Positions 1 to 32,000 of a DNA stretch of 32,000 nucleotides are shown here, piece by piece. Made by a program: the position numbers and the translations under genes. Numbering within the stretch: position 1 is the first letter of the stretch; each line of letters begins with the position of its first letter. This stretch comes from Candidatus Saccharimonadota bacterium (GTDB lineage: Archaea > Nanohalarchaeota > Nanosalinia > Nanosalinales > Nanosalinaceae), in NCBI GenBank assembly GCA_001761425.1, contig CP012986.1:1086575-1118574 (forward strand), given 5' to 3'. The notes beneath the pieces are model-generated. The model saw only the letters and a list, made by a program, of their open reading frames with translations, had not been told where the DNA came from and did not search any database.

Positions 1-70
1 GGTTGGGCGCTGAAGGTTTCTTTCTGTTTAGAGGTAATCTATAAGTCCCAGAATCAGTTAACTGGTAGGT

Positions 71-991
71 ATGGAAGAAGTTGTTATTGTTGGTGGAGGT
101 CTAGCAGGTTTGAGCGCTGCTGTTGACCTTGTTGAGGATGAGGATACAAATGTTACTGTACTTGAGAAAAACGGTCATCTGGGCGGTAGAGCAGGGAATA
201 AGATTGATCCTGTGGAGGAGGATCCTGTACCGATCGCTCCGCATATCTATGTAAGTTTCTACGATGAATTGAAGAGTTTCTTCAGTAAGATTGGTTCGGA
301 GGACGCAATATACTGGGAGGATGGCCAGATATGCGATGTCTACTATGAAGGCGAGTTTTCAACGGTAAAAACAGGTCACCTAAAGCCTCCCTGGTATCTG
401 GCATCTCTTTTCGCCAACTATCCGCTTTTCAGTACTCGTGAGATGTTAAACAATTTCAAGGTAGGGTCAAAGCTATACCTTCTAGATGAAGATGATATTG
501 AAGACCTGGATGATACCACTGTTGAAGAATTTTTAAACGATCTCGGTGCGAGCAAAGGAGTGATAGATAAATTCTACAGGTTGATCTGCCTGGCACTTCT
601 TAACGCACCTGTAGAGAAATGTTCCGCGGCAGAGTTCTGCAGGTTGATGAAGAATTTCATGAAGACAGACGGAAGAGACTGGGGGTACGCAAAGGGCGGA
701 CTCGGAGATGTCTATACAGAGAACGCTAGAGAGTTTATCGAGGAACATGGCGGCGAAGTAAGGATGAAAACCGCAGTTGAAGAGATAAAGTTTGAAAGCG
801 AAGAGGTTACCGGTCTAGAACTTGAAACCGGGGAGTATGTAGAACCAGATCAGATTATCTCTACTGTTCCGCCTACAGTGCTTAGAGACATTCTTCCGGA
901 GGAGCAGATGGAGACAGAGTTCTTCTCCCATCTAGAGAACTTCCACGGTGTACCTTACTACTCTGCCTTCGCATGTTTGATGGTAAGGTAA
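71..991 (+). CDS. FAD-dependent oxidoreductase of the amine-oxidase/phytoene-desaturase (CrtI/HpnE-like) family, N-terminal part of a frame-disrupted gene
   Basis: ORF track. N-terminal dinucleotide-binding motif VVIVGGGLAGLSAA...VLEKNGHLGGR. The ORF stops at 991 while the family-typical C-terminus continues in another frame from 973. Confidence 0.7.
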   Translation: MEEVVIVGGGLAGLSAAVDLVEDEDTNVTVLEKNGHLGGRAGNKIDPVEEDPVPIAPHIYVSFYDELKSFFSKIGSEDAIYWEDGQICDVYYEGEFSTVKTGHLKPPWYLASLFANYPLFSTREMLNNFKVGSKLYLLDEDDIEDLDDTTVEEFLNDLGASKGVIDKFYRLICLALLNAPVEKCSAAEFCRLMKNFMKTDGRDWGYAKGGLGDVYTENAREFIEEHGGEVRMKTAVEEIKFESEEVTGLELETGEYVEPDQIISTVPPTVLRDILPEEQMETEFFSHLENFHGVPYYSAFACLMVR

Positions 992-1413
992 CCGATAAAC
1001 GCTTCTGGGCCTTGATCGATGCTGACAGAGACAAGTACTGGAATACTGACTTCTATGATAAAAGCAATATTCCGGGAGTAGACGAGGAAAACTCCTACAT
1101 CACATCCAACATCATTAATACAAACGAGATGGAGGAAAAATCAGAAGACGAGATAATGGAAAAGACCAAGGAAGAAATCCAAGAGGCCTTCCCGGAAAAC
1201 GAAGCGGAAGTCCAGCACTTTAGCGTTCACAGAATCGACTACGCACTGTACGAACCGGTAACAGGTATGAGAGAACACAAGTTACCGCATGAGACACCTG
1301 TAAGAAACTTTTATTTGGCAGGAGACTGGACAATCAAGGAAATACCACAGTGCATGGAAGCAGCAGTCAGAAGCGGAAGACGTACAGCGGAGAAAGTCTC
1401 CGAAAAGACCTGA
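973..1413 (+). CDS. C-terminal part of the same FAD-dependent oxidoreductase (frame-shifted relative to 71..991)
   Basis: C-terminal FAD-binding signature NFYLAGDWT..P.CMEAAVRSGRRTA is typical of the family. Overlaps 71..991 by 19 nt in a different frame. Confidence 0.65.
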   Translation: MFDGKVTDKRFWALIDADRDKYWNTDFYDKSNIPGVDEENSYITSNIINTNEMEEKSEDEIMEKTKEEIQEAFPENEAEVQHFSVHRIDYALYEPVTGMREHKLPHETPVRNFYLAGDWTIKEIPQCMEAAVRSGRRTAEKVSEKT

Positions 1414-1647
1414 CTAACAAGGCCAGACACCCAAACTCTCCAAATTAAAGGATTCAAAGCCTGATACAATCCAGAACAGGCCTTTACCATGAAACAGGAA
1501 CTGATCGAGAAGTCCAGAGATTACTTCGGTGAGAGAAGAGTTAGACGAGTCTTTGTGAAGTATCTGGATTAGATATTTTATTGTGTCAGGTCGAGGCCTT
1601 GTCCCTTTTTGGTCATTGATTTGATCTGTGAGCGGGGTATCAGCCAT
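1414..1647 (-). CDS. Hypothetical protein; possibly the out-of-frame continuation of ORF 1578..1868
   Basis: ORF track only. Overlaps the upstream ORF by 70 nt in another frame. No recognisable motif. Confidence 0.2.
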   Translation of the reverse strand: MADTPLTDQINDQKGTRPRPDTIKYLIQILHKDSSNSSLTEVISGLLDQFLFHGKGLFWIVSGFESFNLESLGVWPC

Positions 1648-1868
1648 GTTGTTGTTTTGCCCTGTCTTTCTTCCTCGAAAACTTCCATTATGGCTTTGAG
1701 CATCTCTCTTTCTTTGATATAGGAAAGTTTAATGACCGTGAAGGTTTCTCTTAGGCCTTTGGTTCTTCCGTCGCTTCTGAGGATGATGGTTTCCCTATCT
1801 AGGTTGTGGTCGAACCATGGTATGGCATGTTTGTCGATAACTGCTTTATCAAGTTCTATGCTGGCCAT
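1578..1868 (-). CDS. Hypothetical protein (possibly 5' part of a frame-disrupted gene)
   Basis: ORF track. Protein-like composition for the first ~75 residues, then a low-quality tail that mirrors the start of ORF 1414..1647. Confidence 0.35.
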   Translation of the reverse strand: MASIELDKAVIDKHAIPWFDHNLDRETIILRSDGRTKGLRETFTVIKLSYIKEREMLKAIMEVFEEERQGKTTTWLIPRSQIKSMTKKGQGLDLTQ

Positions 1869-1910
1869 GTTTCTCTATTGTTCATCGAGTTTATTGAATA
1901 GTACGGGAAA

Positions 1911-2429
1911 CTATCTTTTCCTGACGTACCAGTCTGCCAGAATCGGAAGGCCTTGAATCACCGCTGCGGTCTGGAAGGCATAAAGCTGGAAGACAGGTTT
2001 CAGCACCAGTAAAGGAACCGCAAGCAGGTTCAGAACTGCTGCAGCACCGTATATTTTCTTAGAAAGATCTGACATATTATATGCTGTGTAGATGAACAGC
2101 ACACCAGGCAGAAGGAACCATTTATGGTAGTAACCAAACGTTAAGGCCTCTCCAGAGAGAAACATCTGGCCGAAAAAGTTTCCTACAAGGCCCATAACCA
2201 TGAACACAGACCAGATCGGGTTCAGCGTCCTCCAGCCGAGAGGGCCTTTACCTTCCTGATAGCTCATGTAAACTGGCGGTATGATGAACAGAGTCCATAG
2301 AAGAAGTATCTGGTACTCTACCGCTACTGCTGTTATCCCCAAGACCTTGATATACGGTGTCAGAAGATAGGCAAGTGTTACTGTGAGACCCCACGTGGCC
2401 GCCCCATCGAAGTCTCTCTTCAGGTTCAC
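1911..2429 (-). CDS. Integral membrane protein, unknown function (about 5 hydrophobic helices)
   Basis: ORF track. Multiple hydrophobic segments. 4-nt overlap with the upstream lipoprotein gene suggests co-translation. Confidence 0.6.
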   Translation of the reverse strand: MNLKRDFDGAATWGLTVTLAYLLTPYIKVLGITAVAVEYQILLLWTLFIIPPVYMSYQEGKGPLGWRTLNPIWSVFMVMGLVGNFFGQMFLSGEALTFGYYHKWFLLPGVLFIYTAYNMSDLSKKIYGAAAVLNLLAVPLLVLKPVFQLYAFQTAAVIQGLPILADWYVRKR

Positions 2430-2869
2430 TCAACTATCACTGTTCCAGTATGAGATGAGTAATCATGGTTATGGTATCTCCATTCTCCTTCTTTCTCAAA
2501 TGTGAAACTGAACCTGTCTCCTGAGGAACACTGGTCGAAGGCTGAGGAGGCCTGATCCCCGTTACTGCAGTGTTCGTTCAGGGATGTCCCTGCATACTCT
2601 GAATGTACCGGATGCTGGTCGGAGCCAACCCACATGGACCTTGAGGCCTCTGATTCCCAGACAACTGTATCTCCCTGCTTTACTGTAACCGTCTCCGGCT
2701 GGAAACCGGAACCAGTGTAAGTAATTACTGTAGCATTCTCCGAGGTATTAGAGGGCAAAGTTTCAGGCCCTGGTTCAGAAGGAGCAGGATCTGAAGGCGA
2801 CGAAGGGTTTGAAGCACATCCGGAAGCAACTAGAACTAATGCGAAAAGAACAGCAGTTCCCAGTTTCAT
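2426..2869 (-). CDS. Secreted lipoprotein with cupredoxin-like domain
   Basis: Signal peptide plus lipobox (LVLVASGC). TVTVKQGDTVVW...SDQHPVH...GEWRYHNH...HTGTVIV pattern resembles cupredoxin-fold (plastocyanin/EfeO-like) proteins. AT-rich TATA-like tract 2882-2899 lies about 27 nt upstream of the ATG. Confidence 0.65.
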   Translation of the reverse strand: MKLGTAVLFALVLVASGCASNPSSPSDPAPSEPGPETLPSNTSENATVITYTGSGFQPETVTVKQGDTVVWESEASRSMWVGSDQHPVHSEYAGTSLNEHCSNGDQASSAFDQCSSGDRFSFTFEKEGEWRYHNHDYSSHTGTVIVE

Positions 2870-2931
2870 AACTTGACTTTGTTAATAAAATTAAATTAAG
2901 GTTTCGTGAAACATTATTCGAACACTGAAAT

Positions 2932-2949
2932 GTAGCGGAAGTAGCGGAA
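2932..2949. repeat. Perfect tandem direct repeat GTAGCGGAA x2 in a divergent promoter region
   Basis: Read directly: GTAGCGGAA at 2932-2940 and 2941-2949, between the cupredoxin lipoprotein gene (-) and the small zinc-ribbon ORF (+). Confidence 0.8.
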
Positions 2950-2996
2950 AGGCCCCTTGAAACGGTTAAAAGGAGGCCTCGAAATTAGTCCTTGCT

Positions 2997-3101
2997 ATGA
3001 AACGTGAGGGGGAGAGGGTTGATTTCTGTCAGACATGCGGTTTCAAAATCGCGTCCAGGGCCTCGGTCTGTGTAAGATGCGGTTCCGAGGTGAAAAACTG
3101 A
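2997..3101 (+). CDS. Small zinc-ribbon protein, 34 aa (MKREGERVDFCQTCGFKIASRASVCVRCGSEVKN)
   Basis: Not in the ORF track (below size cut-off). CxxC-X10-CxxC motif. TATA-like GTTAAAAG at 2964-2971 is centred about 27-30 nt upstream of the ATG, the same geometry as other first genes here. Confidence 0.45.
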   Translation: MKREGERVDFCQTCGFKIASRASVCVRCGSEVKN

Positions 3102-3243
3102 ATTTCATATAGAAAAAGCTCTGTAAGGCCTTCCAACAGATTTCCCGCACTTTACTGAGTGGGAATAGATGTGTAGAGATTTCTTGAGTCAGGTCTCCCA
3201 GGATCTCTCTTTCTTTTTAAACGAGCGGAGATAATTATGTTGT

Positions 3244-3600: not shown

Positions 3601-3610
3601 GGTGATTTAT

Positions 3611-3964: not shown

Positions 3965-3967
3965 AAA

Positions 3968-4675: not shown

Positions 4676-4676
4676 T

Positions 4677-4721: not shown

Positions 4722-5150
4722 ATGAAAACAGTAAATGCAGAAGATAAAGTTCTCGGACGTCTGGCTTCCAGTATCGCCCGCAGTGTTAAGGATGGTGAGG
4801 AGGTAAGAGTTGTTAATTCGGAGAAAGCTGTTGTCTCCGGTGACGAGGCCGAAGTCAAGGACGAATACAAGACAAGATTTGATAGAGGTAGAAGAGATAC
4901 TGGGCCTTACTATCCGAAGAGGCCTGATAAGATCTTGAAGCGTACTGTGCGTGGTATGCTTCCTGATCATGAGAAGCGTGGCCGTGAGATGCATTCACGT
5001 GTCAAGACCTACCTCGGTGTTCCAAGCGAGTTTGACGAAGTTGAGGAAGTTGATGTCAAGGAAGGCGACGAACTTCAGAACAGGAATTATGTAAAACTTG
5101 GCGAAGTATCCAGACATATCGGCTGGACTCCAAGAGGTGATGGAAACTGA
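4722..5150 (+). CDS. rpl13: 50S ribosomal protein L13 (uL13)
   Basis: VLGRLAS.IA......GEEV.VVN.EKAV.SG...YYPKRPD.I.KRTVRGMLP matches the archaeal L13 pattern. Operon context. The AGGTG SD sits in the loop of hairpin 4702-4719. Confidence 0.95.
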   Translation: MKTVNAEDKVLGRLASSIARSVKDGEEVRVVNSEKAVVSGDEAEVKDEYKTRFDRGRRDTGPYYPKRPDKILKRTVRGMLPDHEKRGREMHSRVKTYLGVPSEFDEVEEVDVKEGDELQNRNYVKLGEVSRHIGWTPRGDGN

Positions 5151-5879: not shown

Positions 5880-5887
5880 AGGCCTTC

Positions 5888-9979: not shown

Positions 9980-10009
9980 TATTAACGCCACCACTCATAT
10001 CACGGAGTT

Positions 10010-10084
10010 GCGGCAGTAGTGTAGTCTGGCCAATCATCTCGGCCTTTCGAGCCGAAGACCCGGGTTCAAATCCCGGCCGCCGCA
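10010..10084 (+). tRNA. tRNA-Glu (anticodon UUC)
   Basis: Manual cloverleaf: acceptor GCGGCAG/CCGCCGC (A6-C67 mismatch), D arm GTGT-AGTCTGGCCAA-TCAT, anticodon stem TCGGC/GCCGA with loop CTTTCGA, T arm CCGGG-TTCAAAT-CCCGG, discriminator A. No encoded CCA. T-tracts follow. Confidence 0.9.
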
Positions 10085-10148
10085 TGTTTAGTAAATTTTT
10101 CCTGAGTTTTTTATCTTGAGAAAGATACTGCGGAATTAACTGAGGCTT

Positions 10149-10685: not shown

Positions 10686-11295
10686 CGGAAACCACCTCGA
10701 AAACACAGTACTCTTTTTCTATAGATTCACATCTACATTCCACTTCTTCTCCTTCAACCTCTTTCTCCCAGAAGTAGGATGAAAGGCCTATAAGCACTCC
10801 AAGAAGGAATTTACATTCTTTTCTACCAGTTGTACCGTAACTGTATGATTCAAACGTGTTGTAGGCCTTTATCCTGATTTTTTCTCCGTCTTCGTATTCT
10901 TCTATCTCTGTTCGGCCAAGCCAGCCGACGAAGGTTCCGTAACCTAGTATCTTCTTTAACTGTGATTCATTGTCTGTTGGCTTGAGAGCTTTTACCCCTC
11001 CTACATCGAATCCTGACTTCCAGAGAAGGCTCAGTATCTCTTTATTGGATGTCTCATTGAACTGGGCATCCATCTTTCCGCCTATATTTTTTCCTGCTCT
11101 TTCACCAAACTCCTGTATCCTGCTCTGGATCACAGGGCCTGCGACGTCTTCCATGTTATGAAAGATTTTGGCAAAGACGTTTGTATCCATGAAGACGAAT
11201 CTGCGGTTAGCATAACTTCTGACGGCTTCCTCATCTACATCTAGGTCTATCAAATGAGGTGCCAACCTGTAGAATGCGTTGTACGAATCTCCCAC
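10675..11295 (-). CDS. V4R (4-vinyl reductase-type) domain protein
   Basis: C-terminal V4R pattern CKFLLGVLIGLSS...EVECRCESIEKEYCVFEV. GTG start. Overlaps the downstream paralogue. Confidence 0.7.
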   Translation of the reverse strand: MGDSYNAFYRLAPHLIDLDVDEEAVRSYANRRFVFMDTNVFAKIFHNMEDVAGPVIQSRIQEFGERAGKNIGGKMDAQFNETSNKEILSLLWKSGFDVGGVKALKPTDNESQLKKILGYGTFVGWLGRTEIEEYEDGEKIRIKAYNTFESYSYGTTGRKECKFLLGVLIGLSSYFWEKEVEGEEVECRCESIEKEYCVFEVVSDES

Positions 11296-16266: not shown

Positions 16267-16306
16267 AAAAAGGGGAAACGGTTGAGAGGCCTTTTTCTGT
16301 ATTTTT

Positions 16307-17845: not shown

Positions 17846-18550
17846 CTATTCTTCTCCTATGTATTCTCCTTCCTCTCTTCTAAAATCATCTTCGTCCATT
17901 TCCTCTCTGACATGTGCTACGAGGCCTGGTGTCCGTGCGATTATGAAAAGGCCTTTACCGAGTCTGTAGTCCCAGTCGAGATCGCTCATGACTGCTGAGA
18001 TCGCTCCGTCTACATTGATGACAAGAGGGATTTTCTTTTCGGCGAATACGTTTTTTATCTCTTTCATTTTTTCTGCGTATTCTCCTTTGAGGCCGAGATT
18101 TTCTGCTTTCTGGAAGATCTTTTCTGCTCTAGGATCTCTGTCATCGTATACTTTGTGGCCCAGGCCTGGTATCTTTTCTCCTCTCTCCAGATGTTCCTCT
18201 ACTATTTCTTCTGGTGTTTTCTGTGACTGTAGGGTTTTCATTCCTTCTTCGATTGCTCCCCCGTGTTTGTCTCCCAGTGCGAGGACTCCTGCTGCGACAC
18301 CTGTGTTCATGTCGTTGCCTCCGCTCTGGACAGTCCTGGCCGAGACAGTGGATGGGTTTCCGACTCCATGATCGATACTGGAGGACAGTACTGTGTTAAA
18401 TAGCTGTGATTCCTCCGCTCCGGGTTCTTCGCCTTTCAAGAGGAGCCAGATGGCGTCGGCGAATTCCATCCCCATGACTTTTTCCATATCCTGTCCACGT
18501 ATTTTCCCGTCTTCGCCTGAAGACGCTATCTCGGTTCTCCACTCTGTCAT
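17846..18550 (-). CDS. Citryl-CoA lyase-like protein (short citrate-synthase-family domain)
   Basis: 234 aa. LLLKGEEP....LF...L.S.IDHG....STV.AR...SGG....GVAAG.LALGD.HGGAIE...IPGLGHKVY..RDPRA matches the C-terminal domain of citrate synthase/ATP-citrate lyase and stand-alone citryl-CoA lyases. Confidence 0.75.
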   Translation of the reverse strand: MTEWRTEIASSGEDGKIRGQDMEKVMGMEFADAIWLLLKGEEPGAEESQLFNTVLSSSIDHGVGNPSTVSARTVQSGGNDMNTGVAAGVLALGDKHGGAIEEGMKTLQSQKTPEEIVEEHLERGEKIPGLGHKVYDDRDPRAEKIFQKAENLGLKGEYAEKMKEIKNVFAEKKIPLVINVDGAISAVMSDLDWDYRLGKGLFIIARTPGLVAHVREEMDEDDFRREEGEYIGEE

Positions 18551-18641
18551 AAAGGTTTTTGAAACCTGAACGGATTTAACCTTTCTGAAACCGGCGAAAG
18601 ATGAAAGACCTTATTTAATGCTTTCTACCATTAACATGTAT

Positions 18642-19157
18642 ATGGAAGGCCATAAATTCGCTCTAGGCCTCTTTCTGGTTTTAATTGCCTCAGGATGTGC
18701 AGAAATAACCGGAGAGGTCTCAGAGAGCCCGAGCTTTGAGACCCTGGCTCTGGACGTAGAGACTGTTGAGGGTGTTACAGGTGCAGATTACAGGCCTTCA
18801 GACGGGAATCTCTCAGGTTCTTTTCTGAATATGAGTTCTATGGTAAAGAGGGTCGAGTCCTTCTTTGTCCAGGACGGCAATCTCTCCGAGGCCCCTGATT
18901 CAGTTCAGTCCATGGTCGTGGCTCTGAACAGCAGTTCAAACGATACTGTTACAGACATCAGTTTCGACAGGACTGTGGACATAGATGGTTATGAGGCCCG
19001 CAAGTTGAACTCGACAAATCAGACCTTGCTTTACAGCGAAAGAGATAATCTTTCGTTCGCCGTCAGAACTGAAGGCGACGGATTTTACAGCTCCGCCAGA
19101 AAACTTTACAGTGAGATAGCTGAAGACATAGAATCCTTCGAAAATAGTTCTAACTAA
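18642..19157 (+). CDS. Secreted lipoprotein, unknown function
   Basis: MEGHKFALGLFLVLIASGC lipobox signal. ATG 18642 preferred because TTATTTAA (18611-18618) is centred 27 nt upstream and overlaps the ORF-track ATG 18618. Confidence 0.6.
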   Translation: MEGHKFALGLFLVLIASGCAEITGEVSESPSFETLALDVETVEGVTGADYRPSDGNLSGSFLNMSSMVKRVESFFVQDGNLSEAPDSVQSMVVALNSSSNDTVTDISFDRTVDIDGYEARKLNSTNQTLLYSERDNLSFAVRTEGDGFYSSARKLYSEIAEDIESFENSSN

Positions 19158-19911
19158 ATCCCGTATCGACATAATCAATCCATCTTCTCTGCACAGACTC
19201 GTCCGGGCCGTACTCCTCCACAGCTTCTTCAACCGCTGTCTCCAGGAACTTCCTCTGGTAGAGATCGTTTCTTGACCTTAACTTCGGATCATCCATCTCA
19301 TCTCCAGAAGGCATCCTGCCCTCAAGATCAGACCTGTCCATATCAGCTCTTTGAAAAGGCCAAAGCTCGAACTCCGAAGCATAGCTGAGGCCTATATCAT
19401 TCGGAGGCCCGTTCCTGTAATCATCGTGGAAACGGGAAAGCTCATCGCTCTCAGTGAAATCAAGATCTCTACGAAATAGTTCCATCTCAGAGAGAGCCTG
19501 TCCCTCAGCTTTCTCCGGTAAAACACTGTGAACATAGTTCGTCGCTGCTCTGTAGGCCTTCTGTTCTCTTCTGATAATTTCTCCCAACCACTGATCGACC
19601 GAGGCCCTCATATAGGCCTCTAGATTGTCTATATCTTCGTCGAAGTCTATCTGAAGGGATGTTCTTCCACCTGGAAAGTTTTCGACGTAGATATGCATGT
19701 TTCCGTTCTGTATCTCAAGATCCTTCGAGTTTCCGTTCGGGTGAGGTGTCACATTGTATCCTTTGCGGTTGGCGTGTTCCCAGAGGGTGTCGAAATCAAG
19801 GAGGTTTCTGGAGCCTCCTGCCTCTGTTCCAAGAAATTCTCTGTCGTATGTATTTTCCTCACGGTCGAATTCTCCCGGACCGAAGATCTCCTCAAAGCCT
19901 AGGACAGTCAT
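19150..19911 (-). CDS. Hypothetical acidic protein (253 aa), no recognisable domain
   Basis: ORF track. Protein-like composition. Lies 48 nt downstream of the CoA-ligase alpha gene on the same strand. Confidence 0.6.
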   Translation of the reverse strand: MTVLGFEEIFGPGEFDREENTYDREFLGTEAGGSRNLLDFDTLWEHANRKGYNVTPHPNGNSKDLEIQNGNMHIYVENFPGGRTSLQIDFDEDIDNLEAYMRASVDQWLGEIIRREQKAYRAATNYVHSVLPEKAEGQALSEMELFRRDLDFTESDELSRFHDDYRNGPPNDIGLSYASEFELWPFQRADMDRSDLEGRMPSGDEMDDPKLRSRNDLYQRKFLETAVEEAVEEYGPDESVQRRWIDYVDTGFS

Positions 19912-19959
19912 ACATCATAACTGTGCGGGAAGTTTTTACCAAGTTATGGAGGAACATAT

Positions 19960-20853
19960 CTAATCCAGTACATTATCCAGCATATCACCGATCTCATGGT
20001 GAACATCTGCGACGTGAGCACCGGCCTGTTTCAAGGCCTTTTCTTTGTGGCTAGGCTTCCCACGATCTCCTCTTATGATCGCTCCTGCGTGGCCGTACTT
20101 TTTCTCCGGCATATCCTCCGTGAACTTTCCGGTTATATACACTACCAGGGGCTTCGTGAACTCTCCTTTTTCCACGAATTCAGCGGCTTTCTCCTCGTAA
20201 GTTCCTCCTAGCTCTCCAAACAAGACGACAGCCTCAGTCTGGTCATCCTCCTCGAACTTTTCCAGTGCGTCTTCAAACGCAGTTCCTGCAATAACATCTC
20301 CGCCAAGGCCTGCGGCGGTAGAAACTCCATATCCTGCCTGTCGGACAACCCATGAAGTTTCCGTTGTCATTCCACCGCTCTTGGAGATTACCCCTACCTT
20401 CCCTTCTCTGTAGACTCTCTCAGGTTTGTTTCCTCCGATAGGCCCGAGCTTTGCTTTTCCAGGAGAGATGATACCTACGCTTGTAGGACCTACCATCGTC
20501 GCATCGTATTCCTGAACTTTCTCGTATATCTCCCAGGCATCCCTCGTCGGAATCCTTTCAGTAATAACGTTCAATGTCTCTACACCGTTTTCCAAGGCCT
20601 CGAATACAGCGTCTCTAGCGGCGAAAGGCGGGACATAGATCAGTGAAGTATTTATGCCTGGATGCTTCTGTAAGGCCTCCCGGACGGTGTCATAGACCGG
20701 TACGCCTTCAACTTTCTGCCCTCCCTTGCCGGGAGTTACGCCCGCAACGACGTCGGTACCGTACTCGATCATCTCCGGGACCTTTTCACTTGCCTCCCTG
20801 CCCGTGATCCCTTGAACCAGAACCTTGGTATCTTCATCTATGAGTATACTCAT
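19960..20853 (-). CDS. Succinyl-CoA synthetase alpha-type subunit (SucD/CcsB-like CoA-binding, phosphohistidine subunit)
   Basis: MSILIDEDTKVLVQGITG...GVTPGKGG...VISKSGGMT.E...GLGGD...GELGG..EE and the active-site GHAGAII. Confidence 0.9.
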   Translation of the reverse strand: MSILIDEDTKVLVQGITGREASEKVPEMIEYGTDVVAGVTPGKGGQKVEGVPVYDTVREALQKHPGINTSLIYVPPFAARDAVFEALENGVETLNVITERIPTRDAWEIYEKVQEYDATMVGPTSVGIISPGKAKLGPIGGNKPERVYREGKVGVISKSGGMTTETSWVVRQAGYGVSTAAGLGGDVIAGTAFEDALEKFEEDDQTEAVVLFGELGGTYEEKAAEFVEKGEFTKPLVVYITGKFTEDMPEKKYGHAGAIIRGDRGKPSHKEKALKQAGAHVADVHHEIGDMLDNVLD

Positions 20854-21488
20854 TTCGAGTCAACCTCCTTCAAGGCCTCTCTCACGTTCTCACAGGTAAG
20901 TTTATGGATGGTAGGTCCTTTAAAGCCCGAGTTGAACACATGGTAGTTATCGTTCCATACGAAATGCATACCCTCCTTCTCAGCGGCCTTATCTCTGTCC
21001 ACGTAGTTCCCGAAGTAGACGAATCTACCCGCGTCTTCATCCCTCTGCTCGATGAAAGCCTGGAAAATCCTTCTATCCGGCTTTTCAACGCCAACTTCCT
21101 CGGAAACAACGAAGCCCTGATAAGAAAGGCCTTCCTGGTTGAACAGCTCTTCGTAAAAGTTTTTCGCAGCGATGGAGTTGTCGCTGATGAACCCTATAGG
21201 TCCGAAATCTTCGTTAATCCTTTTCAGCTCTTCTATCACGTTTTCTCTGAGGAAGTCGCGCTCCCAGTCAAGGTAAGTCTTCTTCAGCTTCTCCGCGTCC
21301 GCCTCTATACTGTGTTTTTCCAGCCAGGCCTCGACCTCGGATGGCTTGTAGATGTTGTACTCGTTTATCGGGAGTTCAGGAGCATCTTTTACTCCTTCAC
21401 GTCTCAGTTCTTCGTGGACTTTCTCGTTTATCTTCTCGTGGGATGGTAGCAGGGTGTCGCCGATATCGAATACAGGTATTTTATTCAA
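20850..21488 (-). CDS. HAD-superfamily hydrolase-like protein (paralogue 2), non-canonical motif I
   Basis: Motif I VFDIGDTL (nucleophile Asp kept, Asp+2 replaced by Gly), ISDNS, VSEEVGVEKP, and motif IV YFGNYVDRD. 4-nt and 8-nt overlaps with neighbours. Confidence 0.75.
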   Translation of the reverse strand: MNKIPVFDIGDTLLPSHEKINEKVHEELRREGVKDAPELPINEYNIYKPSEVEAWLEKHSIEADAEKLKKTYLDWERDFLRENVIEELKRINEDFGPIGFISDNSIAAKNFYEELFNQEGLSYQGFVVSEEVGVEKPDRRIFQAFIEQRDEDAGRFVYFGNYVDRDKAAEKEGMHFVWNDNYHVFNSGFKGPTIHKLTCENVREALKEVDSK

Positions 21489-22131
21489 GGTTACTGATCA
21501 CCTCTCTTAGCTTCTCAAATTCAAGTTCGTCTATCTCAGGGCCTTCAAAGCTGGAGTTGACTGTATCAAACTGCGTGACCCAGATGTACTTCATACCTGC
21601 GTCCAGTGCTCCTGAATCTACCTCTGCATCATTTCCTATGTAGACAAATTCCCCGGGAGGCCTCTCTCTTTTCTCTGTAAAGGCCTTGAAGATCTCAGGG
21701 CTTGGTTTCTCCACACCTACCTCCTCGGAGACTACTATCGTATCATAGTCGACCTCATGTTCGTCAAGCAGCTTCTTCATAAGGTTTTTGGCCTCTACAG
21801 AGTTGTCGCTGATGATTCCTACAGTTCCGAACTCTCTGTTGCATTTTGCGAAGAGATCAAATACACCATTTTCCATCATAAGATCCTCGAAGGCCTCCAG
21901 ATACCTTTTCCTGCAGCCATGAGCCAGTTCCCTGGGATCGCCGTCTATATCATATTTTTCAAGATACTGTTCAATCTGGCTCGGATCATACATCATGAAC
22001 TTGTCAGGATCGAAATCGTGGACAACTTTATGATTCCTCTGACGCAGTTCATCCTCGATGACGTGTGAGGCAAATTTTCTTGAAGGAACCAGGGTATCTC
22101 CTATGTCAAAGACAGGTACAAATCCGCTCAT
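21481..22131 (-). CDS. HAD-superfamily hydrolase-like protein (paralogue 1), non-canonical motif I
   Basis: VFDIGDTL, ISDNS, VSEEVGVEKP, YIGNDAEVD. Clear paralogue of 20850..21488. Confidence 0.75.
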   Translation of the reverse strand: MSGFVPVFDIGDTLVPSRKFASHVIEDELRQRNHKVVHDFDPDKFMMYDPSQIEQYLEKYDIDGDPRELAHGCRKRYLEAFEDLMMENGVFDLFAKCNREFGTVGIISDNSVEAKNLMKKLLDEHEVDYDTIVVSEEVGVEKPSPEIFKAFTEKRERPPGEFVYIGNDAEVDSGALDAGMKYIWVTQFDTVNSSFEGPEIDELEFEKLREVISNLE

Positions 22132-23273
22132 TCAACACCACCCTTGTACTCTTTAACCATCTCCATTAAATCTTCTGCGGACTGTGTCATAGGCTTGTCA
22201 TTCCTGAAAAGTTTCATGTTTAGACCTAGCTCCTCTTTCTTCTCTCTAAGCAGTTCGAAGGCCTTGTCCGCATGAGGCCCATCTCTACGCACGACGATCG
22301 GATAATCAGGTTTTTCCTCCTCCAGGGCCTGGATAAAGCCTTTCATAGTCCTGAGAATGTCTGTATTGTTTGCTGTTCCTCCGACATGCCATAGACCGTT
22401 CAGATCTTTCGACATGATAACCTTTGCGAGCTTGTAAACTTTTTCTGTCGGCGGATTACCTCCGTACTCCGTGTAGTTTGCTGGTTCTCCGCCGTATTCG
22501 ATCAATGCATCTGTGTTGGTTAAGCTTGCGCCTCCGCCAGCCAGCATCATTCCGATATCGCCTTCAAGTTCAGTATATTTTCCTGCAACCCCTCTATGGT
22601 CCTGTTCATCGATTTTTTCCGCACGCAACTCTCTAGAAGTTTTTTCACGGCCAAGATCCGACCTTTCCGGCAGCTCCCGGTCATGCCTGTAACTTGCGTC
22701 ATTGTCCAGATCCATCATCGCATCCAGGATAATGTAACCGTCCTCCGTCTTCGCCAGTGGATTTACCTCCAGCAAGCGTGCATCTTCCTCCAGAAAGGCC
22801 TTGAACATCTTCTGAAGCACTTTTCCAAGGCTGACGATTTCCTTTCCTTCAAAGCCATTTTCTTTCAGGAACTGTCTGAAACGGAACTGAGAACTGTCTT
22901 CCAGCGGAAGTTTTGAGGCCTCTCTGTCCTCTATCCCTGAGCCTCCCTGTTCCGAGAATATCATAGCCGGTTTTCGCGTGTCTGTATCGTAGATGAATGA
23001 TACGTAGTATTCTTCTTCAAAATCTATCTGTTCCTCGACTAGAACTTTCTGTACTTCTTCGCCGTCGATCCTTCCACCGGTCATTTCGCTTTCAACTACC
23101 TGTACTTCCTTCCTGTTCTCCGCGAACCTGATTCCACCCTTCTCCTTCCTCTTGTTGGCCAGTACCTGGGCCTTAACAACGTATTCTCTATCGTCATGTT
23201 GAAGGCCTTTCTCTGGCGTTTTGAGGCCGTTTCTTTCCAGTATTTCTTTGGCCTCTTGTTCGTGGAGTTTCAC
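22128..23273 (-). CDS. ATP-grasp beta-type subunit of a succinyl-/citryl-CoA synthetase; C-terminal half resembles ATP-citrate lyase/CcsA more than canonical SucC
   Basis: MKLHEQEAKEIL (ATP-grasp N-terminus). GGEPANYTEYGGNPP...GGTANNTDILRTMKGFIQAL...VVRRDGPHADKAFELL resembles the ACLY ANYGEYSG...GGSIANFTNVAATFKG...VRRGGPNY, rather than the SucC ANFLDVGGGA...GGI.RCD...VRL.GTN. Confidence 0.85.
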   Translation of the reverse strand: MKLHEQEAKEILERNGLKTPEKGLQHDDREYVVKAQVLANKRKEKGGIRFAENRKEVQVVESEMTGGRIDGEEVQKVLVEEQIDFEEEYYVSFIYDTDTRKPAMIFSEQGGSGIEDREASKLPLEDSSQFRFRQFLKENGFEGKEIVSLGKVLQKMFKAFLEEDARLLEVNPLAKTEDGYIILDAMMDLDNDASYRHDRELPERSDLGREKTSRELRAEKIDEQDHRGVAGKYTELEGDIGMMLAGGGASLTNTDALIEYGGEPANYTEYGGNPPTEKVYKLAKVIMSKDLNGLWHVGGTANNTDILRTMKGFIQALEEEKPDYPIVVRRDGPHADKAFELLREKKEELGLNMKLFRNDKPMTQSAEDLMEMVKEYKGGVE

Positions 23274-23341: not shown

Positions 23342-23860
23342 ATGGTTTATACTGGACGTGGAGACAGAGGAAGAACCGATCTCTCCTCGGGGGAGAGAGT
23401 TTCCAAAAGTTCTGAAAGGATCGAGGCCTACGGCACGGTTGATGAATTAAACTCTCTTCTCGGAGTCTGCAGAAGCTTTACGGAAGACAAAGATAAAGAG
23501 ATTGAAGAGATACAGAACGAGTTGCATATACTTCAGGCAGAGCTTGCGAACCGTGAACCGGAGACAAAAGTCACTGAGGAAAACACTGAAAGACTCGAAG
23601 GCCTCTGCGATAAGTACCAGGAAGAATGTCCTCCGCTGACCAGCTTCATCCTTGCAGGAGGTACAGAAAGTGCGGCACAGTTACATAATGCTCGTTCAGT
23701 TGCCAGGAGAGCAGAGAGAAGAATTGTCAGGCTGGACCAAGACGAAGAACTCCGTGAAGAAGTCCTGGCCTATATCAACAGGCTGAGCGATCTTTTCTTC
23801 CTCATGGCAAGACATGAAAACTATCTAAACGATGTAGAGGAGAAAAATCCCAGGTACTAG
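23342..23860 (+). CDS. ATP:cob(I)alamin adenosyltransferase, PduO-type
   Basis: MVYTGRGDRGRTDL..GERVSK...RIEAYGTVDELNS..G and ILAGG...A.LH.AR.V.RRAER. Start set at the homology-supported MVYTG (ORF track starts at 23321). Confidence 0.85.
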   Translation: MVYTGRGDRGRTDLSSGERVSKSSERIEAYGTVDELNSLLGVCRSFTEDKDKEIEEIQNELHILQAELANREPETKVTEENTERLEGLCDKYQEECPPLTSFILAGGTESAAQLHNARSVARRAERRIVRLDQDEELREEVLAYINRLSDLFFLMARHENYLNDVEEKNPRY

Positions 23861-25038: not shown

Positions 25039-25782
25039 GTGAAAAAATGGAGATACATCCCGTTCAGGTACTACGACCCGTACTTCAAGACAGGCCTTAA
25101 CAAGGCCTTGATGGAGTCAGCAAGGGAAACAGGCGAGAAAATTATCTTCCTTTCCGGATGGGAGAACGACTGCGTCAACATCGGCTACAGCCAGAGAATC
25201 GAAGAAGAAATAGACATCGGGGAGGCGGAGCACAGAGGCCTTGACATCGTCAGAAGGCAGGGCGGTGGAGGAACCACTTACCTGACAAGAGACGGAGAGA
25301 TAACCTGGGGAATAGTCGCACCCGGAAAAGAGTTCCCGGACGATGTGAACAGTACCTACAGAAAAATCTGTAGCGAGATCGCTGAAGGCCTTTCAAAGAT
25401 CGGAATAGAGGCAAGACACGAACCCATCAACGATATCGTGACCGTTTACGGAAAAATATCCGGAGCCACACTGAAAAAAGAGGACGGAGTCATCTATATC
25501 GGCGGAACACTGATATTTGAGGCTGAAGTCGAGAAAATGTTTGAGGTGCTAACCCCAGGCAAAGAAAAAATCGCTGACAAAGACATAGAGAACTTTGAAG
25601 ACCGTATAACTTCTGTAAGAAAAGAGTCAGATGCCAGTTTTAATGAAACAGTTGAAGCACTGAGCGAAGGCCTTCTAAAAGACAAAAATTACGGCGAGGA
25701 CGAGTTAAAGGCGGAGGAGAAAAGACGTGCTCAAGGCCTCGCTGATAAATACAGGAGTGACGAATGGTTGTATAAGAAATGA
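25039..25782 (+). CDS. Second BPL/LplA/LipB-family protein (lipoate ligase or octanoyltransferase paralogue)
   Basis: YDP..NLA-like N-terminus, VNIGYSQ, GLDIVRRQGGGGTTYL, and the Lys motif YGKISGATL. GTG start. Confidence 0.75.
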   Translation: MKKWRYIPFRYYDPYFKTGLNKALMESARETGEKIIFLSGWENDCVNIGYSQRIEEEIDIGEAEHRGLDIVRRQGGGGTTYLTRDGEITWGIVAPGKEFPDDVNSTYRKICSEIAEGLSKIGIEARHEPINDIVTVYGKISGATLKKEDGVIYIGGTLIFEAEVEKMFEVLTPGKEKIADKDIENFEDRITSVRKESDASFNETVEALSEGLLKDKNYGEDELKAEEKRRAQGLADKYRSDEWLYKK

Positions 25783-26453: not shown

Positions 26454-26547
26454 ACCAACCAGTTAAAAAAATAGCCGATTGTTTCCCTCTATACAGAGTA
26501 GGCCTCCAGCGCTGATTTCAGCCTACAAGGTCTTTGAAAGCGCTTCC

Positions 26548-26587: not shown

Positions 26588-26670
<83 letters not shown>

Positions 26671-28007: not shown

Positions 28008-28038
28008 CTTCGCCCTCAATCCAATTTACAGAAAAATC

Positions 28039-28113
28039 GGTGGAGGTAGGTTAGTTGGTCTATACTCCGACCTTGTGGCGGTCGGGACGCGGGTTCGAAT
28101 CCCGCCCTCCGCC
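28039..28113 (+). tRNA. tRNA-His (anticodon GUG) with genomically encoded G-1
   Basis: Manual cloverleaf: G-1 (28039) opposite discriminator C73, acceptor GTGGAGG/CCTCCGC (U2-G71 wobble), anticodon stem CGACC/GGTCG with loop TTGTGGC, T arm GCGGG-TTCGAAT-CCCGC. T-tract follows. Confidence 0.9.
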
Positions 28114-28154
28114 CTTTTACATACTCAAAATCTTGAAGGCCTCTCTAAGCCCCT

Positions 28155-29042: not shown

Positions 29043-29066
29043 GATTCTTAAACAAATGTAATAGAA

Positions 29067-29091
29067 TATATAGATTTTGGTAATCTATATA
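29067..29091. promoter_or_regulatory. Perfect 10-bp inverted repeat TATATAGATT-N5-AATCTATATA in the divergent promoter region
   Basis: Read directly. Lies 25 nt upstream of the PhoU/AbrB regulator start (29042, -) and about 31 nt upstream of ATG 29122 (+). Confidence 0.6.
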
Positions 29092-29121
29092 GTCAGGGGG
29101 GAAAACTATGTACTCAAATGT

Positions 29122-30099: not shown

Positions 30100-30120
30100 G
30101 GATAGAATTTCAGAAAATCG

Positions 30121-30136
30121 GTAAAAGGCCTTTTAC
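30121..30136. repeat. Perfect 16-bp palindrome GTAAAAGGCCTTTTAC downstream of gene 29122..30099
   Basis: Read directly. Centred on AAGGCCTT. Followed by T-rich sequence including T6 at about 30157-30162. Confidence 0.8.
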
Positions 30137-30237
30137 TTGTTTCTTAAGCTCTGGTTTTTTCTCGGTTCTAATATAGTTTAAGGAGTTTCTAATCAGTTAC
30201 CTTTGAAGTAAAAACTTGTTATCTGTAAGTATATTTT

Positions 30238-31458: not shown

Positions 31459-31488
31459 AAGGCCTCTATTTTTCTCAGTTCCCTTCCG

Positions 31489-31497
31489 TATATAAAG
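31489..31497 (+). promoter_or_regulatory. rRNA promoter module P1: TATA box TATATAAAG
   Basis: Read directly. The repeated box ..GGATGCGGACAC follows about 27 nt downstream of the TATA centre. Confidence 0.5.
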
Positions 31498-31504
31498 TTT
31501 TGAG

Positions 31505-31527
31505 TTTGTTTCCCTGGATGCGGACAC
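31505..31527 (+). repeat. Direct repeat copy 1 (TTTGTTTCCCTGGATGCGGACAC) in the 16S leader
   Basis: Near-identical to 31598-31619 (TTTGTTTACCCGATGCGGAGAC). Both lie at the same offset from a TATA box. Confidence 0.7.
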
Positions 31528-31574
31528 ATGATTCAGTTGATTGTGTACCGTGCTTTGAGTCCCTTAACACATCC

Positions 31575-31583
31575 TTTATAAGG
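31575..31583 (+). promoter_or_regulatory. rRNA promoter module P2: TATA box TTTATAAGG
   Basis: Read directly. Followed by the second copy of the GATGCGGAGAC box. Confidence 0.45.
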
Positions 31584-31597
31584 TTTAACTGGGACTT

Positions 31598-31619
31598 TTT
31601 GTTTACCCGATGCGGAGAC
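31598..31619 (+). repeat. Direct repeat copy 2 in the 16S leader
   Basis: See 31505-31527. Confidence 0.7.
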
Positions 31620-31781
31620 GTTTGGGGTGAAAGCTCGCAAGAGCCTTGATGAGCGCATTATTATTTTTGCGTGATGTAGGAGAGATGGACCCATGCAAGA
31701 TACAGTTTTCGCTGTATCTGGCATACACATTTTGTAGCCATGCATCTGCGTTTTTTAGCGGAGATGCTTGGTTCACTTGAC

Positions 31782-31898
31782 TGGAAGGTTTCCATCTGTG
31801 GAACCTTCCAATAGCAACTCGCTTGTCGAGTTGCGTTGGAAAGTTTGGAACTTTCCGTTCAGATAAATACCCGTCAAGAACCCTCCAACTTGTTGGAG
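31782..31898 (+). other. Four consecutive hairpins in the 16S rRNA 5' leader
   Basis: H1 TGGAAGGTTTCCA/TGGAACCTTCCA (31782-31810, one bulge). H2 GCAACTCG/CGAGTTGC (31814-31834). H3 GGAAAGTT/AACTTTCC (31838-31856). H4 CTCCAA/TTGGAG (31883-31898). Confidence 0.7.
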
Positions 31899-31900
31899 CA

Positions 31901-32000
31901 ATTCCGGTTGATCCTGCCGGAGGCTACTGCTATCGGAGTCCGATTTAGCCATGCTAGTCCACCGAGTCTTTGACTCGGGGCGGATAGCTGAGTAACACGT
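31901..32000 (+). rRNA. rrs: 16S rRNA gene, 5' end (partial, runs off the window)
   Basis: ATTCCGGTTGATCCTGCCGGAGG...GATTTAGCCATGCTAGT...AGCTGAGTAACACGT is the canonical archaeal SSU 5' end. Confidence 0.9.

Follow-up and report, generated by a model that had tools for sequence, protein, structure and literature searches.

The window is a 32-kb stretch of the genome of Nanohaloarchaea archaeon SG9, a tiny salt-loving archaeon. Its AGGCCT sites and individual features are as follows:

AGGCCT starts, 1–8 kb: 1184, 1478, 1594, 1753, 1948, 2144, 2548, 2644, 2974, 3126, 3320, 3343, 3708, 4012, 4120, 4445, 4566, 4920, 5880, 5980, 6043, 6118, 6492, 6672, 6968, 7028, 7172, 7273, 7342, 7558, 7767
AGGCCT starts, 9–14 kb: 9256, 9460, 9511, 9569, 9907, 10784, 10863, 11341, 11353, 11426, 11587, 11764, 11786, 11892, 12340, 12375, 12755, 12906, 13312, 13562, 14324
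AGGCCT starts, 16–20 kb: 16057, 16200, 16287, 16554, 16761, 16924, 17433, 17499, 17831, 17922, 17949, 18162, 18665, 18792, 19388, 19554, 19614, 20034, 20306, 20595, 20673, 20873
AGGCCT starts, 21–25 kb: 21127, 21326, 21658, 21681, 21891, 22259, 22796, 22916, 23203, 23424, 23599, 23936, 23982, 24006, 24444, 24502, 24634, 24729, 24903, 25092, 25103, 25236, 25386, 25668, 25734, 25868, 25984
AGGCCT starts, 26–31 kb: 26168, 26414, 26500, 26719, 26785, 27154, 27312, 27466, 27601, 27694, 28137, 28819, 29412, 29626, 30086, 30126, 30389, 30476, 30599, 30758, 30837, 31346, 31385, 31460
22..1559, + strand: SG9-specific 1.5-kb segment with overlapping amine-oxidase-like ORFs (71-991 and 973-1413)
4920..4925, + strand: AGG-CCT = Arg-Pro, phase 0 example, in the ribosomal protein L13 gene
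11341..11358, no strand: tightest AGGCCT pair, AGGCCTcgaaaaAGGCCT, in a divergent gap between genes starting at 11295 (-) and 11377 (+)
16287..16292, no strand: lone AGGCCT in the middle of a 40-nt convergent gap (stops at 16266 and 16307), with TTTTT following
23599..23604, + strand: GAA-GGC-CTC = Glu-Gly-Leu, phase 2 example
25092..25097, + strand: probable recent gain of AGGCCT in SG9, from comparison with relatives

The sites at 5880 and 17831 lie in gaps resembling the convergent gap of 16287.

By exact count the window holds 125 AGGCCT (3.9 per kb), approximately 16 times more than expected by chance, and the word tops all hexamers; the runner-up palindrome, AGATCT, occurs 15 times. The total equals the estimate of the first-pass annotation, which had also reported at least 24 copies of the extended octamer AAGGCCTT (24 by exact count) and about two thirds of GGCC inside AGGCCT (62% of 202), and its figures for one-mismatch neighbours agree with ours (AGGCCC plus GGGCCT 30, TGGCCT 11 and CGGCCT 6). 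Markov nulls expect 6.55 (order 0), 7.59 (order 1) and 20.96 (order 2) copies; expectations of order 3–4 come near the observed count only because these models are fitted on sub-words of AGGCCT itself. The excess extends over all SG9 sequence reached (201 copies in 50.3 kb) and recurs in independent assemblies of several projects (JGI, ENA, Logan and NCBI).

Within the 39 ORFs of the window the word occupies all three codon phases (AGG-CCT 12, xAG-GCC-Txx 44 and xxA-GGC-CTx 47), and 22 copies fall outside these ORFs. Between genes, 25 are observed versus 0.8 expected, a 30-fold enrichment. Both the occurrence in every phase and in intergenic DNA had been noted beforehand, and the phase examples then given (AGG-CCT at 4920, 9569 and 16057, GAG-GCC-TTC at 1184 and GAA-GGC-CTC at 23599) all match ORFs. 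The accompanying claim that codon usage alone is insufficient also stands: 500 synonymous-codon shuffles, which leave the proteins and their pooled codon usage unchanged, yield 11.9 ± 3.2 copies (maximum 20) versus 103 observed in genes (z = 29), with each phase approximately 6–9 times above its own null, and a codon-order shuffle yields 7.6. The force targets the DNA word itself, not codons or peptides. Peptide contexts synonymously able to encode AGGCCT (permissive contexts) contain it in 103 of 140 cases in the window (74%) and, across 50 kb of SG9, in 169 of 233; AGG-CCT encodes 12 of the window's 14 Arg-Pro dipeptides, and the codons of 12 of 14 EGL tripeptides contain the word. The suspected imprint on proteins is seen in the 14.6–17.5 permissive contexts per 1,000 codons of carriers versus 10.1–11.2 in non-carriers, approximately 30–50% more than in relatives. 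Nearly every tolerant position has been driven to AGGCCT, mostly synonymously and partly by amino-acid change.

The excess is limited to one clade: SG9, a Nanohalobium sp. MAG, strain M3_22 (genome L007) and two metagenome lineages. Permissive-context occupancy is 72–78% in SG9, 64% in L003 and 36% in L007, compared with 0–18% in twelve other nanohaloarchaea and 0–6% in the immediate sister lineages; the non-carrier sisters are L154–L157 and the L004/L006/L027 lineages. In neighbor-joining trees of approximately 880 aa the carriers form a single clade, with 100% bootstrap in the first sequence set and 66% after the nearest non-carrier, L154/L156, was added as sister. The force began once, on the branch from which SG9, Nanohalobium sp., M3_22 and their relatives descend. 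Non-carrier orthologues have synonymous near-misses at site positions (for example, AGGACT, AGGTCT and AAGCAT), and at Gly third positions the ratio of C to non-C is 72:23 in SG9 versus 11:76 in the sister clade. The force is of young origin and restricted to one small clade, a setting in which its cause could be traced.

Compared with a close relative 97.5–98.5% identical to SG9, 7 of 158 and 8 of 159 AGGCCT sites have changed, whereas other hexamers changed in 10.9% of cases (p = 0.003 and 0.007), a 2.5-fold slower turnover at 98% identity. Third codon positions diverge by 1.9% and 0.75% inside sites versus 4.3% outside (p = 0.046 and 0.0017), and site conservation between carriers is 24–61% versus 7–15% for control palindromes. 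Existing sites are still shielded from decay. The site at 25092 was probably gained recently by a synonymous A-to-C transversion in a Gly codon; both the 98% relative and sister L156 read AGGACT there, and L003 and L007 read AGGGCT. Newly inserted DNA enters site-poor: segment 22..1559, in place of which the 98%-identical relatives L188/L189 have 146 nt, contains 2 AGGCCT and uses one of five permissive contexts.

Spacing between sites is near exponential (CV 1.02–1.07). Flanks beyond ±1 show no conservation, which means that no longer repeat underlies the sites; a weaker symmetric preference exists for R at −1 and Y at +1. Among one-off variants, only those at the two outer positions are in excess (56 observed versus approximately 31 expected), those at the inner positions numbering 90 versus approximately 107, a bias to outer positions that Elhai also reported for HIP1 (PMC4390886). 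Occupancy is 55% with a neighboring site 6–50 nt away versus 80% at 50–400 nt (post hoc bins), which shows that the force does not act on each site entirely independently; a binding protein that covers a footprint would be compatible with this as well.

We interpret AGGCCT as a highly iterated palindrome that is specific to one clade of nanohaloarchaea, with an orphan Type II methyltransferase as the most likely agent, and give this reading as a whole slightly less than an even chance. A palindromic hexamer with symmetric R/Y flank preference suggests a dimeric protein reading double-stranded DNA; the cause is most likely a clade-specific protein recognizing AGGCCT, probably an orphan methyltransferase. 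This candidate would be a clade-specific Type II DNA methyltransferase of StuI-type specificity (AGGCCT). Methylated sites may be favored by repair or gene conversion biased to the strand with the intact methylated site, as in Elhai's ratchet for HIP1, or by a small fitness gain per methylated site; the strength per position would roughly be S = ln(21.6), about 3. The HIP1 ratchet remains unproven, recognition sites of orphan methyltransferases are usually not inflated, and we know of no methyl-directed repair in archaea. Indirect support comes from the literature: every alternate HIP of cyanobacteria is accompanied by a methyltransferase of matching specificity (PMC4390886), and CAGGCCTG is a HIP in Synechococcus PCC 6312 (PMC5861425). 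In Alcanivorax borkumensis SK2, AGGCcT is known to be cytosine-methylated on both strands (PMC12128166). In a REBASE survey, the single restriction-modification-related gene of M3_22 is a Type II methyltransferase, predicted m4C, with endonuclease, Vsr and m5C methyltransferase all unlisted (PMC10609329, Tables 1-2, S2-S3). The 50 kb of SG9 and the related loci examined contain no methyltransferase gene. An active restriction partner is unlikely, as the first-pass annotation had argued, given that hyper-abundant AGGCCT is incompatible with ordinary restriction-site avoidance.

Selection of the sites for binding by a clade-specific DNA-binding protein (in nucleoid organization, replication, segregation or condensin loading), with methylation not causal, we consider rather unlikely. 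A palindrome with symmetric R/Y flanks suits a dimeric binder, the sites are conserved and protected, occupancy falls with a neighbor at <50 nt as if sites were redundant inside a footprint, and for HIP1 Xu et al. prefer selection on a chromosome-level function to biased repair (PMC5861425). However, approximately three-quarters of codable positions are converted, including pairs 11–12 nt apart and amino-acid-changing cases, and such saturation is far beyond the needs of a mere density requirement; spacing is irregular, and a candidate protein was not found. AGGCCT might also be a DNA uptake or recombination signal, spread by molecular drive as word-rich fragments are preferred within the population, like Haemophilus USS and Neisseria DUS; it is clade-specific and, like uptake sequences, present in all codon phases and imprinted on proteins, and nanohaloarchaeal DNA import through giant surface proteins is supposed (PMC6642349). 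We nevertheless hold this to be improbable: a 6-nt palindrome at 4 per kb is unlike known uptake signals. These are 9–12 nt long, non-palindromic and present at approximately 1 per kb, frequently as pairs within terminators, and we know of no uptake signal or natural competence in the phylum.

Very-short-patch repair, a sub-option of the first-pass annotation, would have an m5C methyltransferase, together with an endonuclease or glycosylase of Vsr or Mig.Mth type acting on T:G mismatches, turn AGGTCT/AGGCTT into AGGCCT. One archaeal precedent is T:G repair linked to a GGCC methylase (Mig.MthI with M.MthTI), and at Gly third positions of the less saturated L007 the loss of T, from 34% to 12%, exceeds that of A, from 39% to 27%. 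The fit is otherwise poor, and a simple Vsr-type drive is disfavored, with very little probability left to it. T-neighbors, whose depletion such a drive predicts, are undepleted in the window (AGGTCT plus AGACCT 25 versus 25.7 expected; AGGCTT plus AAGCCT 17 versus 19.1), and T is the base most often left at synonymous positions that were not converted (34 of the 50 non-C residues in saturated genomes versus 37% in non-carriers). A- and G-variants are converted more fully than T-variants, which transition-only repair cannot do; by our own argument such repair is capped at approximately 50% C per position, versus 76% observed, and the M3_22 survey lists neither Vsr nor m5C methyltransferase (PMC10609329). 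A by-product reading, in which the excess would stem from codon or dipeptide preference, from assembly, or from a dispersed repeat or mobile element, has a negligible chance: GGC, GCC, AGG and CCT are moderately used codons, but nothing else favors it, and it is refuted by the codon-preserving shuffle and the intergenic enrichment, with unconserved flanks and recurrence across assemblies against it as well.

Rather than such a by-product, AGGCCT is an archaeal counterpart of the cyanobacterial highly iterated palindromes, new in Archaea, and the parallel with HIP1 drawn at first reading is upheld by its all-phase, intergenic, conserved and lineage-specific occurrence. The cyanobacterial set comprises HIP1 (GCGATCGC) and the alternates GGGATCCC, TCGATCGA, GCSGC and RCCGGY (Elhai 2015, PMC4390886; Xu et al. 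2018, PMC5861425). HIP1 and AGGCCT are both short GC-rich palindromes at least 15-fold above expectation, found in every reading frame and in non-coding DNA, conserved across related genomes above control palindromes, with codons better conserved where they fall within the motif, one-off variants skewed to outer positions, and absence from related lineages. Unlike HIP1, AGGCCT is a hexamer of young origin in one small clade, its host is archaeal (DPANN, with symbiont genomes of approximately 1 Mb), its density is 4 per kb versus 0.3–2.7, and it fills approximately three-quarters of synonymously codable positions. The Dcm/Vsr footprint of E. coli (CCWGG over- and CTWGG under-represented) is likewise a DNA-level inflation of a methylation-site word and not a matter of coding needs, but it is modest and tied to T-variant depletion, whereas AGGCCT is 16-fold enriched with T-variants undepleted and no Vsr listed for M3_22. 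Haemophilus USS and Neisseria DUS are also genome-wide words that invade coding sequence in all frames and shift peptide content, although those signals exceed AGGCCT in length, are not palindromes and are linked to a known competence receptor. The StuI-type restriction-modification system of A. borkumensis SK2 shares the identical recognition word, but is an active defense with an endonuclease and site inflation is unreported (PMC12128166), whereas the SG9 clade has hyper-abundant sites and no known endonuclease. The word CAGGCCTG of Synechococcus sp. PCC 6312 has the AGGCCT core and similar enrichment (O/E 14.7; PMC5861425) but is an octamer with C/G flanks, where SG9 prefers A/G and T/C, and occurs in its bacterial host at 0.37 per kb, ten times more rarely.

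The window, with 46.1% G+C over 32,000 nt, is the end of a JGI contig (sample 3300010222), and its extremely acidic proteins include AOV95447.1 and AOV95459.1 of Nanohaloarchaea archaeon SG9, a halite endolith named Candidatus Nanopetramus SG9 (bioRxiv 10.1101/029934). Exact counting gives 125 AGGCCT, 24 AAGGCCTT and 202 GGCC, which agrees with the roughly 125 AGGCCT of the manual scan in the first-pass annotation. AGGCCT is the top hexamer of the window, and the runner-up among palindromic hexamers, AGATCT, occurs 15 times. The expected count is 6.55 under a base-composition model and rises to 7.59 with dinucleotide and 20.96 with trinucleotide frequencies; higher-order Markov expectations come near the observed count only because they are trained on the word's own sub-words. 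Overall, AGGCCT is approximately 16-fold over-represented. The excess is not confined to the window, given that the ~18 kb upstream are equally dense: over the 50,345 nt covered (~4.5% of the 1.1-Mb genome) there are 201 sites (3.99 per kb) against 10.4 expected.

One-substitution neighbours are much rarer in the window, as had been noticed from the sequence (AGGCCC 20 and GGGCCT 10, together 30; TGGCCT 11; CGGCCT 6; each inner variant 2–14). These variants are biased outward, with 56 at outer positions against ~31 expected and 90 at inner positions against ~107, and the bias is greater in two relatives, strain M3_22 and the JGI contig L158. Sites are spaced near-exponentially (coefficient of variation 1.02 in the window and 1.07 over 50 kb). 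A purine is preferred at −1 and a pyrimidine at +1, with no conservation further out, so the copies are independent hexamer occurrences rather than pieces of a longer repeat. Several of the statistical contrasts reported here are based on tens of sites.

Codon usage does not account for the excess. In 39 long, non-overlapping, mechanically called ORFs covering 87.5% of the window we find 103 sites (82%), distributed over all three phases as 12 AGG-CCT, 44 xAG-GCC-Txx and 47 xxA-GGC-CTx, and a further 22 fall outside these ORFs. The word is denser there, at 5.5 per kb, than in genes (3.7 per kb), and intergenic DNA holds 25 sites where 0.8 are expected. Swapping codons among identical amino acids, which leaves proteins and pooled codon usage unchanged, yields 11.9 ± 3.2 sites (maximum 20 in 500 shuffles) against the 103 observed (z = 29), with phase means of 1.9, 5.0 and 5.1; a shuffle of codon order inside each gene yields 7.6. 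The first-pass annotation was therefore right that the word occurs in every phase, within and between genes, beyond what codon usage explains, and the codon-preserving excess is far from the one- to twofold level that it had named as grounds for abandoning the idea. Permissive contexts, that is, peptides able to encode AGGCCT synonymously (Arg-Pro; [K/E/Q]-Ala-[F/L/S/Y/C/W]; a residue with an xxA codon followed by Gly-Leu), do so in 103 of 140 cases in the window (74% occupancy) and in 169 of 233 across 50 kb of SG9. Within the window, 12 of 14 Arg-Pro, 12 of 14 Glu-Gly-Leu and 5 of 5 Glu-Ala-Phe are spelled with the word. Genomes rich in AGGCCT (carriers) also have 14.6–17.5 permissive contexts per 1,000 codons compared with 10.1–11.2 in non-carriers, and are again richer in orthologous alignments (for example, 43 versus 32 and 45 versus 33). 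Hence the force has altered amino acids too, and the suspected imprint on the proteins is borne out.

For comparison among nanohaloarchaea, orthologous loci around the CoA-ligase alpha gene were collected from genome and metagenome collections, with one syntenic region per relative; L002 is the same DNA as the window and adds nothing. Four relatives have AGGCCT-rich loci.

AGGCCT-rich loci in relatives of SG9 (locus, source, AGGCCT per kb)
L003, Nanohalobium sp. MAG, 3.7
L153, ENA contig, 3.4
L158, JGI contig, 2.5
L007, complete genome of strain M3_22 (CP046106.1), 1.7

Sixteen other nanohaloarchaeal loci have 0–0.8 per kb, approximately the expectation or lower, among them Nanohaloarchaeum antarcticus R1 (L159) and the very close L154–L157 (0, 0, 5 and 0 sites). 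Carrier genomes comprise SG9, M3_22, SW_7_46_7, Nanohalobium sp. DAL-WCL_22_76C1R (JBDGSM01) and the ENA contig set ERZ27300266; non-carrier sisters are JBEQAZ01, JBEQBC01, JBLGBK01 and the ERZ1034543/47 lineage. Occupancy in codon-aligned orthologues is 72–78% in SG9, 64% in L003, 36% in M3_22 and 0–18% elsewhere. In neighbour-joining trees from ~880 aligned residues of three proteins, bootstrap support for the carrier group was 100% in the first taxon set and 66% once the non-carriers L154 and L156 were added as immediate sister; carriers plus this lineage are supported at 73%, and the next group out is a non-carrier clade (L004, L006 and L027). These trees would be most simply read as one origin along a single short branch. 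At positions with AGGCCT in SG9 the word is present in non-carriers in 0/15, 0/41, 2/31, 0/31 and 0/25 cases, and they have chiefly synonymous near-misses such as AGGACT, AGGTCT and AAGCAT. Among related genomes AGGCCT is conserved at 24–61% compared with 7–15% for control palindromes, and relative to L153 GGC codons are conserved in 14 of 16 cases inside the word and 12 of 37 outside.

Avoidance of GGCC as an ancestral trait was considered and rejected, given that under order-1 and order-2 expectations only two non-carriers, L009 (JALDAJ010000001.1) and L013 (JACOQA010000003.1), are clearly depleted. Each has 12 GGCC in 20.9 kb against 33–76 expected, which suggests GGCC-specific restriction pressure in those two lineages. 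The same 20.9 kb of L013 also contains 29 TTCGAA; as its most frequent hexamers are TTC and GAA repeats, this is probably an effect of the Phe-Glu codon pair.

The force on AGGCCT acts in favour of the word as DNA, is inherited within a single clade, and is both strong and ongoing. Third positions of Gly codons in permissive contexts are A 34, C 11, G 12 and T 30 in the sister clade, A 11, C 22, G 3 and T 5 in M3_22, and A 5, C 72, G 2 and T 16 in SG9. From sister clade to SG9 the odds of C rise ~21-fold, which would correspond to a scaled advantage of ~3 per position. Maintenance was assessed directionally over 40 kb between SG9 and a lineage (L185–L189) at 97.5–98.5% identity. Only 7 of 158 SG9 sites are changed in the relative and 8 of 159 of the relative's sites in SG9 (4.4–5.0%), compared with 10.9% for other hexamers (p = 0.003 and 0.007). 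Third codon positions are 1.9% and 0.75% divergent inside the word and 4.3% outside (p = 0.046 and 0.0017). An earlier test over 21 kb gave p = 0.025, and pooling both genomes' sites over 40 kb gave p = 0.18; pooling is weaker because it counts variable sites by construction, and the directional test is the valid one. Gains and losses balance out, as they should close to equilibrium. One or two of the 15 variable sites can be polarised, and that at 25092 is a probable recent A-to-C gain in SG9. Relatives within the L158 lineage, 99–99.9% identical, are too close to inform on turnover.

The poorest stretch of the window, 22–1559, has two sites and uses one of five permissive contexts. It contains two overlapping amine-oxidase/phytoene-desaturase-like ORFs, apparently one gene split by a frameshift:

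71–991, first ORF
973–1413, second ORF

The segment is missing from the 98%-identical relative, which has 146 nt in its place. This fits newly arrived DNA for which conversion to AGGCCT is still to come, and deletion in the relative is a possible alternative. A horizontally acquired CRISPR island of SG9 (41.5% GC) is likewise predicted to be poor in sites. Occupancy also falls with proximity of a neighbouring site: over the window and the SG9 DNA upstream of it (L191 1–18345), 30 of 55 permissive contexts (55%) are used at 6–50 nt from a neighbour and 136 of 171 (80%) at 50–400 nt (Fisher p = 0.0007, with bins picked post hoc). This drop complicates a purely site-autonomous drive; it would fit redundancy of neighbouring sites, whether these serve as a repair signal or share a binding footprint.

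AGGCCT shares with the highly iterated palindromes (HIPs) of cyanobacteria every feature of that class that could be tested, which bears out the parallel with HIP1 drawn in the first-pass annotation. Like them, it is a short GC-rich palindrome in great excess (125 versus 6.5–7.6 in the window and 201 versus 10.4 in 50.3 kb of SG9), is enriched in all frames and in non-coding DNA beyond codon usage, is more conserved than control palindromes with codons better kept inside it, and has outer-biased one-off variants. The word itself differs: HIP1 proper is GCGATCGC or a GATC-centred derivative, and CGATCG occurs only 7 times in the window. The closest precedent for the word is CAGGCCTG in Synechococcus PCC 6312, at 0.37 per kb and an observed/expected ratio of 14.7 (PMC5861425). 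Other classes of dispersed word were rejected. REP or MITE repeats have a longer unit and are mainly intergenic, whereas here conservation ends at ±1 and 82% of sites are in genes; restriction-site avoidance leaves a word under-represented in the host, the opposite of the 16-fold excess seen; and oriented chromosome words such as Chi or KOPS are excluded because a palindrome has no orientation and so no strand skew. DNA uptake signals are non-palindromic, 9–12 nt long, read by a competence receptor and often arranged as inverted pairs in terminators; AGGCCT is a 6-nt palindrome with one close pair seen (11341/11353), and by these defining features is not one.

The palindrome and its symmetric flank preference suggest that the word is read in double-stranded DNA by a dimeric protein, and the most likely cause is a candidate orphan methyltransferase of AGGCCT-type specificity, which might be coupled to biased repair or gene conversion or, alternatively, to a benefit per site. 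We rank it first on three indirect lines from the literature. The alternate HIPs of cyanobacteria are found together with methyltransferases that match them in specificity, and show an outer bias of their one-off variants (PMC4390886). Among the 519 complete archaeal genomes of a REBASE survey, M3_22 is listed with exactly one restriction-modification-related gene, a Type II methyltransferase predicted to be m4C, and with no endonuclease, Vsr or m5C enzyme; the survey's authors warn that endonucleases of Type II are difficult to detect (PMC10609329, Tables 1-2, S2-S3). In Alcanivorax borkumensis, AGGCcT is cytosine-methylated on both strands (PMC12128166). Motif scans of the window and a first set of loci, as well as the Pfam gene tables of later loci, gave no methyltransferase candidate.

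A drive of the very-short-patch (VSP) repair type, in which an m5C methyltransferase and a Vsr- or Mig-type mismatch enzyme together inflate the word, had been raised from the sequence with the prediction that T-for-C neighbours be depleted. They are at expectation (AGGTCT plus AGACCT 25 versus 25.7; AGGCTT plus AAGCCT 17 versus 19.1). Moreover, T is the main residual in saturated genomes (34 of 50 non-C residues versus 37% in non-carriers), A- and G-variants are more fully converted than T-variants, and, by our own argument assuming symmetric transversion rates, transition-only repair caps C at about half of a position. A simple drive of this type is thus disfavoured. In addition, M3_22 is listed with V = 0 and no m5C genes (PMC10609329), and no Vsr- or Mig-type enzyme with an m5C methyltransferase was seen in the SG9 and relative loci examined. 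Ordinary mutation from C to T, which cytosine methylation may have raised, would leave T-rich residues of this kind where a strong force opposes it. Going beyond the orphan methyltransferase, we regard as improbable a scenario in which AGGCCT marks the chromosome of a DPANN symbiont as self. In it, ~4 (methylated) sites per kb would be recognised by a pair of enzymes specific to the clade, or else by a system of methyl-directed repair or gene conversion, and would let the symbiont tell its DNA apart from that of the host, imported as a source of nucleotides or for recombination; the word would spread by transmission bias and not classical selection. If true, methyl-directed repair or gene conversion of this kind would be the first in Archaea.

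The searchable literature yielded no description of such an excess, of AGGCCT or a comparable palindrome, in Nanohaloarchaea or any other archaea, and the SG9 genome paper is silent on it. To our knowledge, biased repair, methylation and a chromosome-level function are all, after ~30 years, still in contention as the reason why HIPs exist, and all well-studied cases that we know of are cyanobacterial. Because the trait is old and nearly universal there, the comparative genetics of HIPs has been short of contrast. AGGCCT is distinctive in being archaeal, very dense, close to saturating its coding capacity and young, with probably one recent origin in a handful of ~1-Mb genomes, saturation graded from 36% to 74% across carriers, and close non-carrier sisters at hand, some from the same ENA assembly series (ERZ10345xx). 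At least one carrier is reported to have a single restriction-modification-related gene. The causal gene could be traceable across a few small genomes. The case shows how strongly a DNA-level force can recast the synonymous positions of a reduced symbiont genome, and even the peptides it encodes, with bearing on codon-usage, phylogenetic and binning analyses of nanohaloarchaeal carriers.

Several further features of the window were recorded. Single sites lie in the middle of very short convergent-gene gaps or 2–30 nt past stop codons at 5880, 16287 and 17831 (also 28137, 30126 and 31460), several of them running into T-runs (for example, AGGCCTTTTTCTG at 16287). The tRNA genes contain no AGGCCT:

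10009–10085, tRNA-Glu(TTC)
26588–26670, tRNA-Leu(GAG), with sites nearby at 26500, 26719 and 26785
28040–28114, tRNA-His(GTG)

An ATP-citrate-lyase-like set, split into separate genes and conserved in order across nanohaloarchaea, spans 17846–23273:

17846–18550, citrate-synthase-like gene
19960–20853, CoA-ligase alpha gene
22128–23273, ATP-grasp/citrate-binding gene

The CoA-ligase alpha and ATP-grasp genes are separated by two paralogous HAD hydrolase genes. An unannotated 253-aa protein (19150–19911), after the CoA-ligase gene, has ~29% identity to a PD-(D/E)XK nuclease-family protein (PF12705) of the L158/M3_22 lineage (L193 10940–11776), a distant positional counterpart; it is no candidate driver because it is found in carriers and non-carriers alike.

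Viruses are linked to the carrier clade by CRISPR spacers, for example halite contig Ha1987. We also scanned IMG/VR for triples of AGGCCT with members at most 30 nt from one another, a poorly designed pattern given that such triples are absent even from 42 kb of SG9. Among the matches listed, most are chance occurrences or tandem repeats (L076 and L039 are tandem repeats). Two of the matches listed are viral contigs unrelated to halophiles with a dispersed excess of the word: L034 (IMGVR_UViG_3300029432_000018), with 13 sites in 3.6 kb at 36% G+C, mostly as AAGGCCTT, and L115, with 22 sites in 10.8 kb at 52% G+C and genes for ParA, an integrase and a primase.
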